DNA from: Coprothermobacterota bacterium
GTDB lineage: Bacteria > Caldisericota > JANLFM01
DNA length: 64,000 bases
Assembly (NCBI GenBank): GCA_026389455.1
Contig: JAPLHV010000020.1
Coordinates: 16,447 to 80,446 of the forward strand
Direction of reading: 5' to 3'
Within the stretch, counting starts at the first letter, position 1; each line of letters begins with the position of its first letter. A model generated the notes under the pieces. The model worked only from the letters and a program-made list of their open reading frames with translations, did no database searches and was not told where the DNA came from. This document shows, in pieces, positions 13,313 through 61,437 of the stretch. Made by a program: the position numbers and the translations under genes.

Positions 13313-14956
13313 TTGCAAGCGCTGGGGGCTTCCCTGCGGGAGGCGCTTCAACAGCAATTTGGGCAAGATGCCGGGCCGGTTTCGTGGGAGGCGGCTCCCG
13401 CTTCCGTGCGAGAGGCGCGTCATGCCGACTTGACATGCCACTACGCTTTCCATGCGGCCAAGCTTTTTCACACCAACCCACGAGAGCTGGCCTACGCTCT
13501 GCAAGCGGCGATCCCAGATTCGCTGGGAGTGTCAACCGAGGTAGCCGGACCGGGTTTCCTCAATTTTAGCCTTGAAGCTGCAAGCGCCAAGGCAATTCTT
13601 CGCGATGTCTTCCAAAACCCCGCTGGTTACGGTCACTGGCAGCAGAAGCAAGCACGGCAAGTCAATGTGGAGTTTTGCTCAGCCAATCCAACTGGTCCCA
13701 TCCACCTGGGAAACGCACGTGGCGCTTGCTTTGGGTTTGTCGCTGCCAACTTGTTAGAAGCTTGGGGACACAAGGTTTCTCGTGAATACTACTTCGATGA
13801 CTTCGGCACTCAGGTGGACACTTTCGCCTTGTCCCTGCTTGCGCGTTACCGTGAAGCGCTGGGTCAAGAATCGGTCTTCCCAGAGGGTGGCTACCAGGGG
13901 GAGTATGTGCGTGAAATAGGCCAACGGGCTGCCCAGGGACACTTCGAGTGGGCTGGCCTTCCTTTCAAGAACCTGCTGGTCGAGCTACGGCGCTTCGGCC
14001 TACAGGAGATGGCCCGAGCTCACCGTCAAACTATGGATGGGCTGGGCATTCGTTTCGACACCTGGTTCTCTCAGAGCTCCTTGGAGCGAGATGGGTTCCT
14101 GCGACGCGCACAAGTTCAGCTGGAAGATGGAGGTTTTCTCTATCCGAGGGATGGGGCGCTCTGGTTCCGTTCCACAGCCTTTGGAGATGACAAAGATCGA
14201 GTGATGATCCGTTCCAACGGTGAGCCTACCTATTTTGCCTGGGACATCGCCTACAATTTGCACAAACGAGAGCGTGGTTTCGATTGGATTATCGACGTCT
14301 GGGGTCCGGATCACCACGGTTATGTGATGCGCAACAAGGCTGCTTTCCAAGCCCTTGGTTACAACGCCGACGATTTGACCTTGCTGATTTATCAATTGGT
14401 GCGGTGGTTCGAGCAAGGGGAAGAAGTTAAGATGTCCAAGCGCACGGGAGAATTTCTGACCCTCGATGAAGTCACTGAAGCGATCGGACGAGACGCCATA
14501 CTCTTCTTTCTACTTGATCGCAGCCCTGACTCTACCTTGGACTTTAACCTTGATCTAGCCAGACAGCAATCTCTTTCCAACCCGGTTTTCTATGTTCAGT
14601 ATGCTTACACGCGCGCTTTCTCTGTGGAGAGAGAAGCGATCCAAAGAGGTTTGGCGATCGGCGAAATCGATTTAGAGACCTGTCAGGCCTATGGGCCGGC
14701 CGAGCACCGTCTTCTAGCCAAAATTGCTCTTGCCCCAGAGGAGATCGCAACAGCCGCCGCCAGCTTGCTTCCGCATCGCCTAACCGGTTTCTCCAAAGAG
14801 CTGTCTGGGGATTTCCACTCTTTCTATCATGATCACCGCATCCTTGGAGTGGATGCTTCTTTGCAGCAGGCACGACTGAATCTAGTCTCAGCATTTCGCA
14901 TTACACTCGGTAATATATTAACCTTATTAGGGCTGAGCGCCCCGGAGACCATGTAA
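13295..14956 (+). CDS. argS: Arginine--tRNA ligase; start lies inside the repeat array (alternatives ATG 13223/13241/13259/13277 or TTG 13313)
   Basis: Class I motifs PIHLGNARG (HIGH-like) and KMSKRTG. Conserved N-terminal region ...HADLTCHYAFHAAKLF. Confidence 0.88.
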   Translation: MPGAGYLQALGASLREALQQQFGQDAGPVSWEAAPASVREARHADLTCHYAFHAAKLFHTNPRELAYALQAAIPDSLGVSTEVAGPGFLNFSLEAASAKAILRDVFQNPAGYGHWQQKQARQVNVEFCSANPTGPIHLGNARGACFGFVAANLLEAWGHKVSREYYFDDFGTQVDTFALSLLARYREALGQESVFPEGGYQGEYVREIGQRAAQGHFEWAGLPFKNLLVELRRFGLQEMARAHRQTMDGLGIRFDTWFSQSSLERDGFLRRAQVQLEDGGFLYPRDGALWFRSTAFGDDKDRVMIRSNGEPTYFAWDIAYNLHKRERGFDWIIDVWGPDHHGYVMRNKAAFQALGYNADDLTLLIYQLVRWFEQGEEVKMSKRTGEFLTLDEVTEAIGRDAILFFLLDRSPDSTLDFNLDLARQQSLSNPVFYVQYAYTRAFSVEREAIQRGLAIGEIDLETCQAYGPAEHRLLAKIALAPEEIATAAASLLPHRLTGFSKELSGDFHSFYHDHRILGVDASLQQARLNLVSAFRITLGNILTLLGLSAPETM

Positions 14957-14996
14957 ATAGCCCCCGGCGGCTTGATAGCCCCCGGCAGGGTGCTAT
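14957..14996 (-). repeat. Core-family array, reverse orientation, 18-bp period, 2 units
   Basis: ATAGCCCCCGGCGGCTTG-ATAGCCCCCGGCAGGGTG-CTAT, immediately after the argS stop. Confidence 0.9.
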
Positions 14997-16066: not shown

Positions 16067-17281
16067 ATGCGAACCTGGAACGAGATCAATCCTTGGCGTG
16101 ATGTATCTCCGGAAGATTGGGGAGATTGGCGCTGGCAACTGAAACATCGCCTGACCACGGTAGACGAATTGAAGGAAGTGATCCATCTCTCCTTGACTGA
16201 AGAGGAGGGGATACGACTTGCTTTGAAAAGATTCCGCATGGCCATCACCCCTTACTATGTGTCACTGATGGATCCAGACGATCCCAACTGCCCGGTTCGC
16301 TTGCAGGGCGTGCCTCAAGCACAAGAGACGGTTCACGGTCAATTCGACCAGCTCGATCCATTGCACGAGGACGCTGACTCGCCGGTCCCTGGGTTGACCC
16401 ACCGTTACCCCGACCGCGTTCTTTTCTTGGTTACCGACCAGTGCGCCATGTACTGCAGATATTGCACGCGCCGCCGTTTTGCCGGCGCCTACGATCGCTC
16501 GCTTTCCAAGGCGGAGTTAGATCGCTCGTTGGAGTACATCCGCCGGACCCCAGTGGTGCGTGACGTCCTCCTCTCAGGCGGGGACGCCCTCCTACTGGAG
16601 CAGGAGCTTCTGGAATTCGTCTTGGTTGAACTGAGGAAGATCCCACACGTAGAGATCATCCGCATCGGTTCCAGGGTTCCCGTGACTCTCCCTCAACGCA
16701 TCACCGATGATCTGGTGACGATGCTGCGGCGCTACCACCCCCTTTGGTTGAACACGCATTTCAATCACAGTCGAGAGATTACACCGGAATCGACCGAAGC
16801 CTGCGCTAAATTGGCAGATGCCGGCATTCCCCTCGGCAACCAGAGCGTATTGCTGCGCGGGATCAACGATTGCCCGACGGTCATGAAGAAATTGGTCCAT
16901 GATCTGCTGAAGATCCGTGTGCGCCCCTACTATGTATATCAGTGCGACCTCTCGGAAGGGATCAGCCACTTCCGCACCTCAGCGCTGCGGGGAATCGAGA
17001 TGGTGGAAGCCCTGCGGGGTCATACCACCGGCTTGGCTGTTCCGACTTTCGTGGTGGACGCTCCGGGCGGTGGAGGGAAAATCCCAGTCGCACCGAACTA
17101 CGTGCTCTCGATCTCTCCAGAGAACGTCGTCTTGAGGAACTACCAGGGCTTGGTATATTCCTATCCGGAACCCGAAGCGATGTCCCGTCATGATCCGGCC
17201 CATTGCCCCACCTGTAGCCGCGATGGATCCCCGCAGAACAGTGTGCTCGACGGCAAGATCGGGCGGAGAGGCAATCATTGA
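16067..17281 (+). CDS. kamA: L-lysine 2,3-aminomutase (radical SAM)
   Basis: CxxxCxxC cluster motif CAMYCRYCTRR and the KamA-family N-terminus WRWQLKHRLTTVDEL. Confidence 0.92.
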   Translation: MRTWNEINPWRDVSPEDWGDWRWQLKHRLTTVDELKEVIHLSLTEEEGIRLALKRFRMAITPYYVSLMDPDDPNCPVRLQGVPQAQETVHGQFDQLDPLHEDADSPVPGLTHRYPDRVLFLVTDQCAMYCRYCTRRRFAGAYDRSLSKAELDRSLEYIRRTPVVRDVLLSGGDALLLEQELLEFVLVELRKIPHVEIIRIGSRVPVTLPQRITDDLVTMLRRYHPLWLNTHFNHSREITPESTEACAKLADAGIPLGNQSVLLRGINDCPTVMKKLVHDLLKIRVRPYYVYQCDLSEGISHFRTSALRGIEMVEALRGHTTGLAVPTFVVDAPGGGGKIPVAPNYVLSISPENVVLRNYQGLVYSYPEPEAMSRHDPAHCPTCSRDGSPQNSVLDGKIGRRGNH

Positions 17282-18426
17282 AGCGTGGCAGTCAGCCCGC
17301 GGCAGCGTGGTATTTAATGGCGGAGCGCCTTTCCTGGCCGGCCGTGGTGAGCGTGGTGGGGACCGGACGAGGTTCCGGGAAGACGACTGTGGCCAACGTC
17401 TTGCTGGAGGCGGGGCTACAGAACAAGAAGAGACTCGGCGTGATCCCGGCAGGAAAAGGGGGGCATGCTACCCCACTGCGTCTGCCCAAGGATACCTTGG
17501 TGGCGCTGGCTAAGAACTGTGAGCTGACACACCACCTGGAGTTGCGCGAGGAGTTGGAGGCCAACACTCCCTGGGGCGAAGTGTTGATCGGGAGGGTTCG
17601 GCAAGCGAGCGAGGCTGTCATCGCCGGCCCGGTTACATTGAACGATACGATTGTCGCTGCGCAGCGCTTGATTGCCGAAGGGGCCGAACTGGTGGTGGTA
17701 GATGGCTCCTTGGGTCGCTTATCGGCGAGCGATTCACACCTTGCCCAGCGCTACATTCTGGCGATGGGCGCCGACCCTGTCGACCGCTGGGCTCGAAAGG
17801 AGCAGTTGGAGCGTTTTCACACCATCACTCTAATGCCCAAGGGCCATTGGGAAATTCCCTCTCCGTCAGACCCTCGAAAACGAGGGCAGCCTGCCTTTTG
17901 GAATAAAGACCGCTGGATTCCGATCCCTGAACTTAACCCGGGACTCCCTGCCGGGGGCTACCAAGCTGCCGCGTCCTATCAAGCTGGACAAGCCCCCGGC
18001 AGGGAGTCCTATCTAGCTGGACAAGCCCCCGGCAGGGAGTCCTATCAAGCTGGACAAGCCCCCGGCAGGGAGTCCTATCAAGCTGGACAAGCCCCCGGCA
18101 GGGAGTCCTATCAAGCTGCCGATCTTGCAACTGCGGAGGCGCTCTACTGGCCCGGCGCTTTCACCGATCGAGCGACTCGTCTGTTAGACCGCTTTCCGTC
18201 TCCCCTGGCTCTGTTGCTGGATCAACCTTGGCATCTTCTCGCCAGCCAGGAGCGCTGGCAAGCGCTCTGGCGGGGAGGATGGTCATTCTTCGCACGGGAG
18301 AAAGCAACCTTAGCCTGGGTAGCTGTTAACCCACGTGCGTTGGATGGGCATTTAGAGAGCCCTGAGAGGTTGCTGGAGGAAGCGCGGATCGCTTTCCAGA
18401 CAGTGGAGTGCCGGCAACTGCAGTGA
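17278..18426 (+). CDS. P-loop NTPase-like protein, possible aminomutase accessory factor; carries an in-frame 33-bp x4 repeat insertion
   Basis: Walker-A-like VGTGRGSGKTT. It lies between kamA and the MutS-like gene. Repeat-encoded (YQAGQAPGRES)x4 at aa 234-277. Confidence 0.45.
   Translation: MKRGSQPAAAWYLMAERLSWPAVVSVVGTGRGSGKTTVANVLLEAGLQNKKRLGVIPAGKGGHATPLRLPKDTLVALAKNCELTHHLELREELEANTPWGEVLIGRVRQASEAVIAGPVTLNDTIVAAQRLIAEGAELVVVDGSLGRLSASDSHLAQRYILAMGADPVDRWARKEQLERFHTITLMPKGHWEIPSPSDPRKRGQPAFWNKDRWIPIPELNPGLPAGGYQAAASYQAGQAPGRESYLAGQAPGRESYQAGQAPGRESYQAGQAPGRESYQAADLATAEALYWPGAFTDRATRLLDRFPSPLALLLDQPWHLLASQERWQALWRGGWSFFAREKATLAWVAVNPRALDGHLESPERLLEEARIAFQTVECRQLQ
17941..18121. repeat. 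Composite: one forward element (17941-17959) facing four reverse 33-bp units (17977-18108) plus a partial
   Basis: GGACTCCCTGCCGGGGGCT ... (TATCAAGCTGGACAAGCCCCCGGCAGGGAGTCC)x4 (unit 2 has TATCTAG) ... TATCAAGCTGCCG. The forward copy is the exact reverse complement of the last 19 nt of each unit. Confidence 0.92.
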
Positions 18427-20093
18427 GCCAGAAGAACACCCTGCCGGGGGCTAGTTACTTTCTTGACCTGGAGACACGAGCTGGCCTGGAATGGGATGAG
18501 TTCCTCGGGTTGGTAGAGACCTATTCCCCCCTCGGCAGGGAGGTCAAAGGGCGGATTCAGCCATACCGGATGGGGCAGGAAAGAGAACTAAGGGCCGAGC
18601 TCCGGCGAACCAAGGCCATGGCTTCCTTTTTACTGAATCACCCCTCCTGGGGGGCTGAACAAGCTGTCTTGCTGCACGGTATTAAAGATATCCGCCGATC
18701 ATTGCGCCAAGCCCGTGAGGGATTTGTACTGACAACAGTGGAGCTGTTCGAATGCAAACGACTGCTCCTGCTCTTTAAAAGATTGCGAAAAGGAATGGAA
18801 CAACCTGGACTTGCATTCCTGGCCTCTCTTCGGCCAAAGGGCTGTCCGGCTCTTCTCCGCCTTCTTTCTTGCGGGGGCCAAAGCCAAGAGACCTTTTCAT
18901 TGGTGGAGGCTTATTCCCCCAACCTTGGACAGATCCGCCATCGCAAGGAGGTGCTGGAGAAGTTGTTGTTGGCAGAACGGGCAGGGGTCAATGAACTGCT
19001 TCGCCAGGACGGACTTCGCCTCGGGCGGGATGAAGAGATCACCGTCCAGCGTGGGAGCCCAGGCGCTGACCGTTGTCAAGAGGTTGACCGTCTCGTTCTC
19101 TATAGCGAGAGTTCGCAAACGATAGTATTTCGCCTTCGGCCCTCCCCCAAGTCGCTAAAATGGAGGGAAGAGTTGGAAACCCTCGCAATCGCCGCAGAGA
19201 GGGAGGAAAAGACGATCCGGGCTAGGCTGGGAAAGGCTATCGGTGAACAGTCTGAGGGCTTGATCGAGGATTTGGAGCGAGTCGGCCGCTTCGACCTGTT
19301 ATTGGCCAAGAGTCAACTTGCCAACAGCTACGGTGGCGCGTTACCCCACCTTCTCAGCGCCTCCTCACCGGTCGTCTTTCGACTGGAAGAAGGACGCCAC
19401 TGGCCGATGAGCATGCGCATGTTGGAGCGGGGCATTCTCTTCCAACCCCTCAGCATCGAGCTTTTAAAAGGAGCTGCTTTGGTCAGTGGATCCAATATGA
19501 GCGGGAAAACAGTCCTTCTTAAGACCATTGGGTTGTCCTGTGCCATGGTCCAGCACGGTTTCCTGGCGCCGGCCCAGGCAATGGAATGGGCGCTGCGTGA
19601 TTTCCTCTTTTTTTCCACTCGGCGGCGCGAGCAGGACGGGCTCTCCGCCTTCGGAGCGGAGGTGACCGGGATCAAGCGGGTGTTGGACCACCACCGAAGG
19701 GCTGGCTTGCTCCTGATCGATGAGCTGGCTCGAGGAACCAATCCCACCGAGGGTTTTGCTATCAATGCCGCTCTCCTTCTGTATATCAATCAGATGCCGG
19801 GAAGTGCACTTTTTACTTCTCACTTCGAGGGCTTGGCTCAAGCGACCGGTGTGATGCACTGGCAGATGGCAGGACTTGGCGAGATTAGCCTTGAGCAGGT
19901 GCAAGCGCTCATGCGAGAGGGCGGGGAGGCTATCCTTTCCAGCCTGATGCAGTATCGCCTGGAGAGAGTCGAGCCCGAACGCCGGGTGCCCCATGATGCC
20001 CTCAAGATCGCCCTCCTATTGGGGCTGGAAGAAGAGGTGATAGAGTTGGCTAGAGGATTCACGGAAAATCTCCAACGCGGAGTTTCCCCTTGA
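18408..20093 (+). CDS. MutS-related ATPase (MutS domain V only), lysine-cluster associated
   Basis: Motifs GSNMSGKTVLLKTIG (Walker A), LLLIDELARGTNPTEG (Walker B) and TSHF. No obvious mismatch-binding N-terminal domain. Confidence 0.78.
   Translation: MPATAVSQKNTLPGASYFLDLETRAGLEWDEFLGLVETYSPLGREVKGRIQPYRMGQERELRAELRRTKAMASFLLNHPSWGAEQAVLLHGIKDIRRSLRQAREGFVLTTVELFECKRLLLLFKRLRKGMEQPGLAFLASLRPKGCPALLRLLSCGGQSQETFSLVEAYSPNLGQIRHRKEVLEKLLLAERAGVNELLRQDGLRLGRDEEITVQRGSPGADRCQEVDRLVLYSESSQTIVFRLRPSPKSLKWREELETLAIAAEREEKTIRARLGKAIGEQSEGLIEDLERVGRFDLLLAKSQLANSYGGALPHLLSASSPVVFRLEEGRHWPMSMRMLERGILFQPLSIELLKGAALVSGSNMSGKTVLLKTIGLSCAMVQHGFLAPAQAMEWALRDFLFFSTRRREQDGLSAFGAEVTGIKRVLDHHRRAGLLLIDELARGTNPTEGFAINAALLLYINQMPGSALFTSHFEGLAQATGVMHWQMAGLGEISLEQVQALMREGGEAILSSLMQYRLERVEPERRVPHDALKIALLLGLEEEVIELARGFTENLQRGVSP
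18433..18458 (+). repeat. Single core-family element
   Basis: AGAACACCCTGCCGGGGGCTAGTTAC, 7 nt after the upstream stop. A degenerate reverse copy, CCCCCCTCGGCAGGGAGGTC, lies at 18526-18545. Confidence 0.85.
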
Positions 20094-29270: not shown

Positions 29271-30464
29271 ATGGAGGTGGAATTGCTTGCCTGGACACCG
29301 CAGCCGGAGAGAACATGCGCTGCCGCGGCCAGGCTCTGCACAAGTGATAGCTCCCCCCTCCAAGCGATTTGGCAGGGATTGAGCGATGAGCGGGTAAAGA
29401 GCGCCATTGCACAGGTGTTAAAAAACGGCCACCTTTCCATCTTAGAACATGCTAGTTTTACTTTTGCGGCCGTCGGTCTTTCACGAGCATGCACTCATCA
29501 ACTGGTACGGCATCGCGTCGCTTCTTTCGCCCAGCAGAGTCAACGCCATCTCCCAGTGCGTGACAGAACAGCCTGCGGCAGCATGTCTACTTGCGGCAGC
29601 ATGTCTACTTGCGGCAGCATGTCTCGTTTCGTGACTCCACCAAGCTTGCGTGGTCACGATCAAGCCCAACGGTTGTTTCGGGAAACCTACTCTCGATCTC
29701 AAGACGTCTATCAGCAGTTACTCATTCTTGGCATTCCGTCGGAGGATGCACGTTACATACTGCCGCAAGCTTGCTCCACCCGAATTCTTTTCACCATGAA
29801 TGCCCGCGAATTGCGCCATTTCCTCCGGATGCGTTGCTGCGAGAAAGCTCAATGGGAAATCCGCGGCCTGGCCTGGCTGGTTCGTCAGCGCCTACTGCGG
29901 GTCGCCCCTGGTTTATTCGGCGATTCCGGCCCAACCTGCTTCGAGACAGATTGTCCCGAGCAGGATTACGTTTGCCGGCGCGAGAAGTCAGCTTTCTTCC
30001 AAAGTTCTTATCACTTGTTTCGTGAACGCTTGCAGAGGCTCGGCTTGATTCTAGCGGAACGTCGCTTGCCTGCAGCCGGTTTGCACCCCTTAGCGACTTC
30101 CAAGATGCTTGGATGCCGGCAGGAGGAGCTGCTTCGCCCAATCTTGATCGAGTGCGGAGAGCGATTCGCTCTGTTGCTCTCTGCGAAGCCCGAGACCGCC
30201 TTGGCGAAAGTTAACGTGCGAACAAACGAAGAGTGGCGTCTCGCCGCTGCGGCTCGATACCGCAAGCTTGGCATCTCTCCTCTAGCCTGCCCCTGGCTCT
30301 TTACAAACGGTGAGGAACAGGTTACTGCTTTCTGGGATAGCAGCTTGGACTGCCAAGGCACACTTGTTTTTAACTTGGCTTCGGCTTGGCGTTTCGCCAC
30401 CCTGCCACCTCGATGCATCGAAGAAATAGCGTCTTGCAGTGGATACACAATCGAGAAGGTGTAA
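29271..30464 (+). CDS. thyX: Flavin-dependent thymidylate synthase ThyX with an in-frame repeat insertion and a ~170-aa C-terminal extension of unknown function
   Basis: ThyX motif [13 protein letters not shown]. (CGSMST)x3 is encoded by the array at 29564-29624. 397 aa against roughly 220-250 typical. Confidence 0.8.
29564..29624 (-). repeat. Core-family array (GCAAG/GCAGG variant), 18-bp period, 3 units, inside thyX
   Basis: The plus strand reads CAGAACA-GCCTGCGGCAGCATGTCT-ACTTGCGGCAGCATGTCT-ACTTGCGGCAGCATGTCT. The reverse complement has the unit AGACATGCTGCCGCAAGT. Confidence 0.9.
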
Positions 30465-61319: not shown

Positions 61320-61437
61320 GGACTCCCTGCCGGGGGCTGTAGTCTCCCTGCCGGGGGCTGTCAAGATGCCGGGGGCTGTCAAGATGCCGGGGGCTGTCAA
61401 GATGCCGGGGGCTGTCAAGATGCCGGGGGCTAGACTG
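61320..61437 (+). repeat. Core-family array: 2 cores 21 bp apart, then 18-bp units (GCCGGGGGCTGTCAAGAT) x3 plus a terminal core
   Basis: GGACTCC-CTGCCGGGGGCTGTAGTCTCC-CTGCCGGGGGCTGTCAAGAT-(GCCGGGGGCTGTCAAGAT)x3-GCCGGGGGCT-AGACTG. The unit is identical to the argS array. Confidence 0.93.

Follow-up and report, generated by a model that had tools for sequence, protein, structure and literature searches.

A probable compound, frame-preserving minisatellite derived from a dispersed hairpin-repeat family within a kamB gene

Introduction

REP, BIME and REPIN sequences are short, high-copy hairpin repeats which form inverted dimers, build clusters where singletons or dimers recur in tandem along with parts of their flanks, and occasionally lie inside genes (PMC3116915, PMC3733652). 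Here we examine a 64,000-nucleotide stretch of contig JAPLHV010000020.1 of a Coprothermobacterota bacterium (hereafter the window), in which a 33-bp tandem array faces an inverted copy of part of itself inside kamB, an open reading frame (ORF) of a lysine 5,6-aminomutase gene cluster. The source assembly is a 2.63-Mb, 263-contig metagenome-assembled genome (MAG). The array is made of a dispersed family of very small repeats, whose element consists of a 6-nt head (RACNCS) and a 12-nt core, CTGCCG(G/C)GGGCT, the arrays being mostly of 18-bp period.

This family resembles REP, BIME and REPIN sequences in that it forms hairpins, reaches a high copy number, occurs as inverted dimers, has clusters reiterating dimers plus flank, and shares its genome with Y1 genes. 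It differs from REP and REPIN in several respects. Its consensus carries neither the GTAG nor the CGTC tag (for the tag criterion, see PMC3733652), singlets and direct 18-bp arrays outnumber doublets, about 40% of its loci are in open frames, and the inserted unit measures only 18-21 nt. Membership of the REP/REPIN group was rejected, as the four full-length Y1 genes are not flanked by family repeats. Two other assignments were discarded as well: a miniature inverted-repeat transposable element (MITE), since the insert found in kamC has no target duplication and single elements have no terminal inverted repeats, and a CRISPR array, since the 33-bp units are contiguous and identical (one base apart) and are not separated by unique spacers.

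The Rickettsia palindromic elements (RPEs) are in-frame palindromic inserts in protein genes, as summarised in PMC3733652. Like them, the present family consists of selfish palindromic repeats tolerated in frame in conserved proteins, to which they add surface peptide. RPEs are single copies of about 100-150 bp, whereas the kamB unit is 18-33 bp long, is tandemly amplified and is present as two opposed copies at one site. The small dispersed repeats of the Nostocaceae, which Elhai et al. reportedly described in 2008, are said to be very small, apparently mobile and often nested in other repeats; our family belongs to a different phylum and has a different sequence. The locus also recalls in-frame minisatellites, or variable-number tandem repeats (VNTRs), such as MIRU, in that its unit length is a multiple of three, its copy number varies (between the relatives L005 and L012) and its growth would be of the slippage type, between direct repeats. 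Unlike these, the kamB unit comes from a dispersed family whose elements have a head and a hairpin core and insert preferentially next to CAG, and the array faces its own inverted copy. Finally, quasi-palindrome template switching is able to perfect imperfect inverted repeats in a single event (PMC7202029). It would explain why the two arms match at 19/19 positions here and at 17/20 in relatives, a step that we infer and of which no intermediate has been observed. Taken together, the kamB locus is a variant within the REP, RPE and VNTR landscape and not a new kind of system.

Results

The array and its inverted arm

The block consists of a forward 19-mer (GGACTCCCTGCCGGGGGCT), a 17-nt segment and four contiguous 33-bp units (Table 1). 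The last 19 nt of each unit, starting at 17991, 18024, 18057 and 18090, are the exact reverse complement of the 19-mer. This geometry had been proposed in an initial annotation of the window, made from the sequence alone, and its coordinates and sequences were confirmed. Tandem Repeats Finder (TRF) reports a period of 33, 4.4 copies and 98% matches over 17973-18118, and an 18-bp period over 17948-17986, to be compared with the two- and three-unit CGC-type forward arrays of the relatives L005, L012 and L013. In kamB, then, a forward array (17941-17976) joins a reverse element tail to tail, both heads facing outward, and the 19-mer is the head unit of this older, oppositely oriented array. The annotation had also read the 33-bp unit as a fusion, and rightly so: each unit joins a piece of the forward array (TATCAAGCTG) to an entire reverse element with both its core and its head.

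The array is bounded by two copies of the 14-nt direct repeat GTCCTATCAAGCTG. This X-Y-X layout is a substrate for slippage or unequal exchange. The units keep the reading frame, as had been claimed, and the claim that they encode four identical peptides fails at one residue: they read YQAGQAPGRES, YLAGQAPGRES, YQAGQAPGRES and YQAGQAPGRES. Because of the T at 18014 that distinguishes unit 2, the longest perfectly periodic run is only about 104 nt. For the 12-nt core itself the window has 28 occurrences where 0.01 would be expected, far above chance, and the forward 19-mer recurs at 61320.

Table 1. Features of the kamB locus and of the adjacent kamC insert (window coordinates)
Feature	Position	Strand	Description
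kamB ORF	17278..18426	+	382 aa from a TTG start; P-loop GTGRGSGKTT; predicted lysine 5,6-aminomutase reactivase subunit
Second kamB insert	17284..17320	-	Net in-frame gain of 33 nt behind codon 2 (codons 3-13); CGC-type core, reversed, at 17294-17305
Whole inserted block	17941..18108	+	168 nt (56 codons) more than in empty-site orthologs, from aligning DNA and protein with L008, L009 and L010
Forward element	17941..17959	+	Head GGACTCC and core CTGCCGGGGGCT (GGG type); head unit of the forward array
Spacer and second forward unit	17960..17976	+	Spacer ACCAAG, then truncated unit of CGC type (CTGCCGCG, followed by TCC)
14-nt direct repeat, left copy	17973..17986	+	GTCCTATCAAGCTG; array boundary
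Four 33-bp composite units	17977..18108	-	On the minus strand: head GGACTCC, core CTGCCGGGGGCT, tail TGTCCAGCTTGATA
33-bp unit 1	17977-18009
33-bp unit 2	18010-18042
33-bp unit 3	18043-18075
33-bp unit 4	18076-18108
Sole inter-unit difference	18014	+	Unit 2, reads TATCTAG; A to T; CAA to CTA; Q to L
14-nt direct repeat, right copy	18105..18118	+	Followed by the gene's own ...CCGATCTTGCA
Partial unit	18109-18120		TATCAAGCTGCC, after the fourth 33-bp unit
kamC insert	18432..18452	+	21 nt (AAGAACACC plus core); codons 9-15, exactly between CAG and AGTT; ortholog alignment

The host gene and its protein

The initial annotation had placed the array in a P-loop ORF of a lysine cluster, which proved correct. 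The ORF lies in a kdd-kamA-kamB-kamC-kamD cluster in canonical order and matches the NCBIfam profile NF052386 (reactivase_KamB) with E = 6e-30 and 104 bits. This score stays under the curated cut-off of 210 because the insert splits the match; the other members of the cluster are well over their cut-offs (kamC 423 bits, kamD 686 bits). By profile match and gene order, the ORF is probably the small subunit of lysine 5,6-aminomutase reactivase. A search for solved structures of KamB returned only a weak P-loop similarity to MobB (E about 1e-3).

Insert-free kamB orthologs are 315 aa long, and the distance from KRGQPA to YWPGAF is 95 aa in the window against 39 aa in empty-site orthologs. In an AlphaFold2 model built with 68 homologs (mean predicted local distance difference test, pLDDT, 81.8; predicted template modelling score, pTM, 0.81), residues 234-271 have a pLDDT <50 and no regular structure, and the 10-residue blocks before 190 and after 280 mostly reach pLDDT >=90. 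The 56 added residues sit, according to this model, in a predicted disordered and permissive loop between two confidently folded domains. Relative to L010, dN/dS is 0.13 upstream and 0.24 downstream of the insert, and both halves of kamB remain constrained by purifying selection.

Orthologous sites in relatives

Ten orthologous kamB loci were compared at the site lying between the conserved ...IPELD and ADLA..E..YWPGAF. This alignment, which the initial annotation had proposed as a check, defined the insertion point and revealed three empty sites. Furthermore, the orthologs devoid of the core motif carry no YQAGQAPGRES-like repeat, so that the observation survives the first of the two refuting conditions set by the annotation.

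Seven states were found at this single codon position. L008, L009 and L010 are empty, as are the distant homologs P0009 and P0010. L006 and L014 carry a single forward CGC-type unit (+18 nt), L013 two decayed forward units and no reverse arm, and L007 a decayed forward-plus-reverse pair. A reverse element follows two forward units in L005 and three in L012, and the window has forward plus reverse elements (+168 nt). Such a diversity among ten loci points to recurrent or hotspot insertion. L005 and L012 have virtually identical flanks and are one forward 18-mer apart, which suggests that the repeat copy number changes faster than point substitutions accumulate.

Maximum-likelihood (ML) trees built from 450-500 nt on each side group the window with the empty L010 and L009, with support values of 100/99 and 95/94. 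The empty sites hold differing, non-element sequences of ancestral length. They are therefore not excisions, and the site must have been filled at least twice, unless the insert arrived via a very short recombination patch. One ancestral insertion with later losses was rejected, as the empty sites differ, have the ancestral length and include the two closest relatives of the window.

As a separate observation, the operon (16067-19700) is a mosaic: kamA is 92-98% identical to L013/G001, and kamB and kamC are closest to L010 (90-94%). This indicates recombination between species of the genus.

Hairpin potential

That the forward copy could pair with any of its four reverse partners, as had been claimed, is borne out by the energies of the isolated 19-bp stem, from -43.8 to -42.2 kcal/mol over the four registers. 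The fold of the 211-nt region, also among the checks proposed, gave -98.6 kcal/mol for RNA (z = -3.9 against shuffles). The DNA fold chose another register, within a diffuse ensemble, and this fits the existence of alternative registers.

The pairing is not maintained in relatives. The arms match at 19/19 positions in the window. In L005 and L012 the forward arm, AGAACACG-CTGCCGCGGGCT, matches the reverse arm (read as AGAACTCC-CTGCCGGGGGCT) at 17/20 positions, and in L007 the arms are complementary at only about 11/19. A scan of the locus against Rfam gave sub-threshold generic hairpin matches only, the best reaching 26 bits against a threshold of 98 (a miRNA-hairpin model), and a terminator and promoter scan of the locus returned no terminator and nothing relevant. 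No selected nucleic-acid function is indicated, because the pairing decays in relatives, the closest relatives have no block at all, and neither an Rfam family nor a terminator was found. The 19-bp hairpin with its four registers is a property of the sequence and shows no sign of selection.

A dispersed family of hairpin repeats

The strict core CTGCCG[GC]GGGCT is present in 980 copies at 469 loci of this genome. Neighbouring strict cores are spaced by 18 bp in 414 cases and by 33 bp in 5; 274 of the 469 loci have a single core and only 8 are of mixed orientation. The elements are polar, with a sharp 5' boundary, the 6-nt head (variants include AACACC, GACACC, AACTCC and GACTCC), the core and a spacer of 6 nt (NTCNAG), after which core and spacer are repeated, the family consensus being CAG-RACACC-CTGCCGGGGGCT-NTCNAG. 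CAG directly precedes 45% of the headed cores genome-wide. The two arms in kamB belong to this family: a RACNCS head and a 12-nt core are found on both strands, and the insert is missing at the orthologous sites of relatives. Head and core covary, heads in ..CC going with GGG cores (417) and heads in ..CG with CGC cores (69), with 8 discordant cases. This covariation maintains a C(C/G)C-TGCC-G(G/C)G mini-hairpin; two clonal subfamilies would yield the same table. The combination of a GGACTCC head with a GGG core is rare, with 20 instances genome-wide (about 3-4% of headed cores), 5 of them in the kamB locus.

With a relaxed core, many inverted doublets appear at fixed spacings (72 convergent and 69 divergent pairs), among them about 13 tail-to-tail doublets with a core spacing of 24-25 nt and doublets that include a second arm type, GACATG-CTGCCGCAGGCT, the whole giving a BIME-like picture.

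Family DNA is translated in all six phases across the genome. Out of 446 testable loci, 178 (about 40%) are in a frame that stays open across +-150 nt, compared with 70% of random sites. Periods at these open-frame loci are almost all multiples of 3, and periods of 19, 25, 29 and 50 are confined to loci outside open frames. Selection would therefore filter for frame.

The 17-mer ACACCCTGCCGGGGGCT is found in the four genomes of the genus; one other genus of the family has five copies of it, and 22 further genomes of the phylum have none. Among the matches listed in species-representative genomes, at least 39 stretches bear arrays, those listed coming from three MAGs. This genome has 10 Y1_Tnp matches, four of which are full-length genes.

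The 33-bp composite at other loci

The annotation had presented kamB as the only locus where the amplified unit contains the flank as well as the core. This holds inside the window and not genome-wide, as amplified units containing the head are also found at C65, C126 (51 bp), C149 (30 bp), C162 (29 bp), C21 and C134. At the non-orthologous C65:10200 of this genome the 33-mer itself is present twice with 32/33 identity, within a 55-nt block of which 51/55 positions are identical to the kamB block, and opposite-orientation CGC-type 18-mers follow, as in kamB. It is present once at another non-orthologous locus in a congener (G001:C148), where it occupies 33 nt between ...GGTAG and the CCCGTGGCAG of an opposite-strand array. 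By these occurrences, the 33-mer is to be regarded as a recurring composite of head, core and 15-nt tail, found in 1, 2 and here 4.4 copies. It shows that composites with head and flank can become an amplified or copied unit.

At C126:24640-24790 of the same genome (G000), a 720-aa ORF contains two in-frame copies of a 51-bp composite that combines a GGG element in forward orientation with a CGC core in reverse. The repeat peptide is ...TARGNLTGLPAGGLSSV x2, and this is a second coding locus in which an inverted pair lies within the amplified unit.

A filled and empty site pair in kamC

The kamC insert (Table 1) is lacking in seven relatives, which are empty at this site, and L009 carries a different, 18-nt CGC-type insert at the identical point. 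No target-site duplication was seen in the ortholog alignment of the kamC insert, for which L007 was used in its clearly aligned parts only. CAG is already present in the empty alleles at both the kamB and kamC sites. This suggests, and does not prove, targeted insertion at CAG with no duplication.

Discussion

We consider it likely that the kamB array is a compound, frame-preserving minisatellite that grew from the genome's own family of tiny hairpin repeats, and not a structure built for a purpose. The four units would have arisen by slipped-strand mispairing or unequal exchange between the 14-nt repeats, or alternatively by re-insertion beside the unit's own ...GATAG end. The amplification would be recent, because only one difference is found in 132 nt. 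The lineage of the window would have acquired its insert independently of the other clade that is filled, or via a very short patch of recombination. Both the hairpin potential and the YQAGQAPGRES peptide would be tolerated by-products, with selection filtering only for frame and for a permissive loop. As to the exact 19-nt match of the arms, it may result from local copying, either quasi-palindrome template switching or gene conversion. We lean, on balance, towards such a local templated copying, because the GGACTCC/GGG type represents only about 3-4% of headed cores and the window retains a CGC-type second unit.

Several observations weigh against this scheme. The amplification mechanism and the homogenisation of the arms are both inferred from the sequence pattern only, and the 4.4-unit copy number is that of the assembled contig. 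Elsewhere, 23 of 627 neighbour pairs show a GGG-type head unit with a CGC-type unit behind it, so the forward arm need not have been converted; these 23 arrays weaken the use of that order as proof of arm conversion. The right junction (reverse element plus TATCAAGCTGCC, then GATCTT) is 39/40 identical between the window and L005/L012, for flanks of about 76-82%, which could reflect shared descent or transfer rather than an independent gain. Two pattern scans of JGI metagenome contigs, one with the right junction and one with the left flank, found no further kamB alleles. Lastly, no family core lies within 2.5 kb of the four full-length Y1 transposase genes.

How else could two identical opposed arms arise? 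They could be independent insertions of one active GGACTCC/GGG subfamily into a hotspot, with no templated copying involved. The same 19-mer is indeed present at 15 other places (61320 among them), GGG-first, CGC-next arrays are common, and recurrent insertion at one site is documented in kamC. The rarity of the GGACTCC/GGG head variant among headed cores argues the other way, as do the host arrays, which in relatives, here and at other 33-mer loci are of CGC type with ..CG heads, and the CGC-type second unit kept in the window. We take this possibility seriously while finding it the less probable account of the arms. An assembly artefact, by which the repeat would have been over-expanded or mis-joined and the true locus would have fewer units or no inverted arm, must be considered for a MAG of 263 contigs in which the array, at 146 nt, has roughly the length of a short read. 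The same forward-plus-reverse layout is found at the same codon in independent assemblies of relatives (ENA, JGI and two GTDB genomes), the frame is intact and the flanks are conserved; moreover, ordinary 125-150-nt reads or k-mers should be able to anchor the periodic run of about 104 nt on both sides. An artefact thus appears very improbable.

The perfect complementarity of the arms in the window, the stem of -42 to -44 kcal/mol and the z of -3.9 could also betray a selected nucleic-acid device, whether an mRNA structure acting in processing, pausing or stability, or, at the DNA level, a cruciform or an inversion switch re-coding the linker; by hand translation, inversion of the 31-nt spacer would leave the frame open. 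Such a role is improbable in our opinion: relatives do not keep the pairing (it drops to 17/20 in L005/L012 and to about 11/19 in L007, and the reverse arm is absent from L006 and L013), the closest relatives are without the whole block, no Rfam family or terminator is present, mixed orientation concerns only 8/469 strict loci, and the structure lies within a translated region. Selection could instead bear on the protein, (YQAGQAPGRES)x4 serving as an adaptive flexible linker or interaction motif of KamB. This would agree with the preserved frame, the inter-domain position and the presence of some insert there in several species. The peptides are nevertheless wholly different from one lineage to another (AAAGYQ, APGREF, QTKQAIGGVS, YQAGQAPGRES) and it is the DNA motif that they have in common; three orthologs and all distant homologs have no insert, the same DNA is translated in all six phases genome-wide, and the modelled segment is disordered. 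An adaptive peptide is for these reasons hardly to be expected.

A more speculative reading concerns the family as a whole, which may be a minimal (18-21 nt) single-strand, hairpin-guided mobile element. It would insert with no duplication immediately 3' of a CAG/TAG-like target, using Y1/HUH chemistry (of the IS200/IS605 or RAYT type) provided in trans, and kamB would be a record of repeated targeted insertions. We regard this as a tentative proposal, and a rather unlikely one. If it were so, a reverse composite would have landed at the ...GATAG of a forward array and undergone four rounds of re-insertion rather than slippage, the arms being then homogenised by hairpin-templated copying. Re-insertion of the element beside itself and into opposite-strand copies would be expected because each unit ends in an ...AG target. 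The candidate cleavage and joining point would be immediately after the CAG of CAG-AACACCCTGCCGGGGGCT.

The kamB locus alone is one more selfish repeat, harmless in a protein loop, and its value is that of a well-resolved case for the family. From the clean filled/empty pair in kamC, the insert can be defined as 18-21 nt placed after CAG without duplicating the target. Together, the kamB, kamC and 33-mer observations make the movement of the family testable. They also carry a warning for annotators, since in this lineage the low-complexity segments of conserved enzymes are inserted repeats rather than domains specific to the lineage.

Further family copies

A second insert is present near the start of kamB itself (Table 1). 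It is missing in all seven relatives compared, adds RGSQPAAAWYLMA to the protein and supplies an in-frame ATG at 17317.

The second arm type, CTGTGACATG-CTGCCGCAGGCT, pairs with the GGG-type element, for example at C123:1255, C149:7108 and C33:1943 of G000. Its core spacings are 26 or 36 nt in convergent pairs and 28 or 23 nt in divergent ones, giving REPIN/BIME-like doublets of about 58 nt. The window array at 29574 is of this second arm type (CTGTGACATG-CTGCCGCAGGCT).

Upstream of the cluster, two reverse 18-mers (36 nt) occupy 14950-14990 between argS and kdd, just past the argS stop and upstream of the kdd ribosome-binding site. They are found in the window and in L006, and are lacking in L007, L008 and L009.

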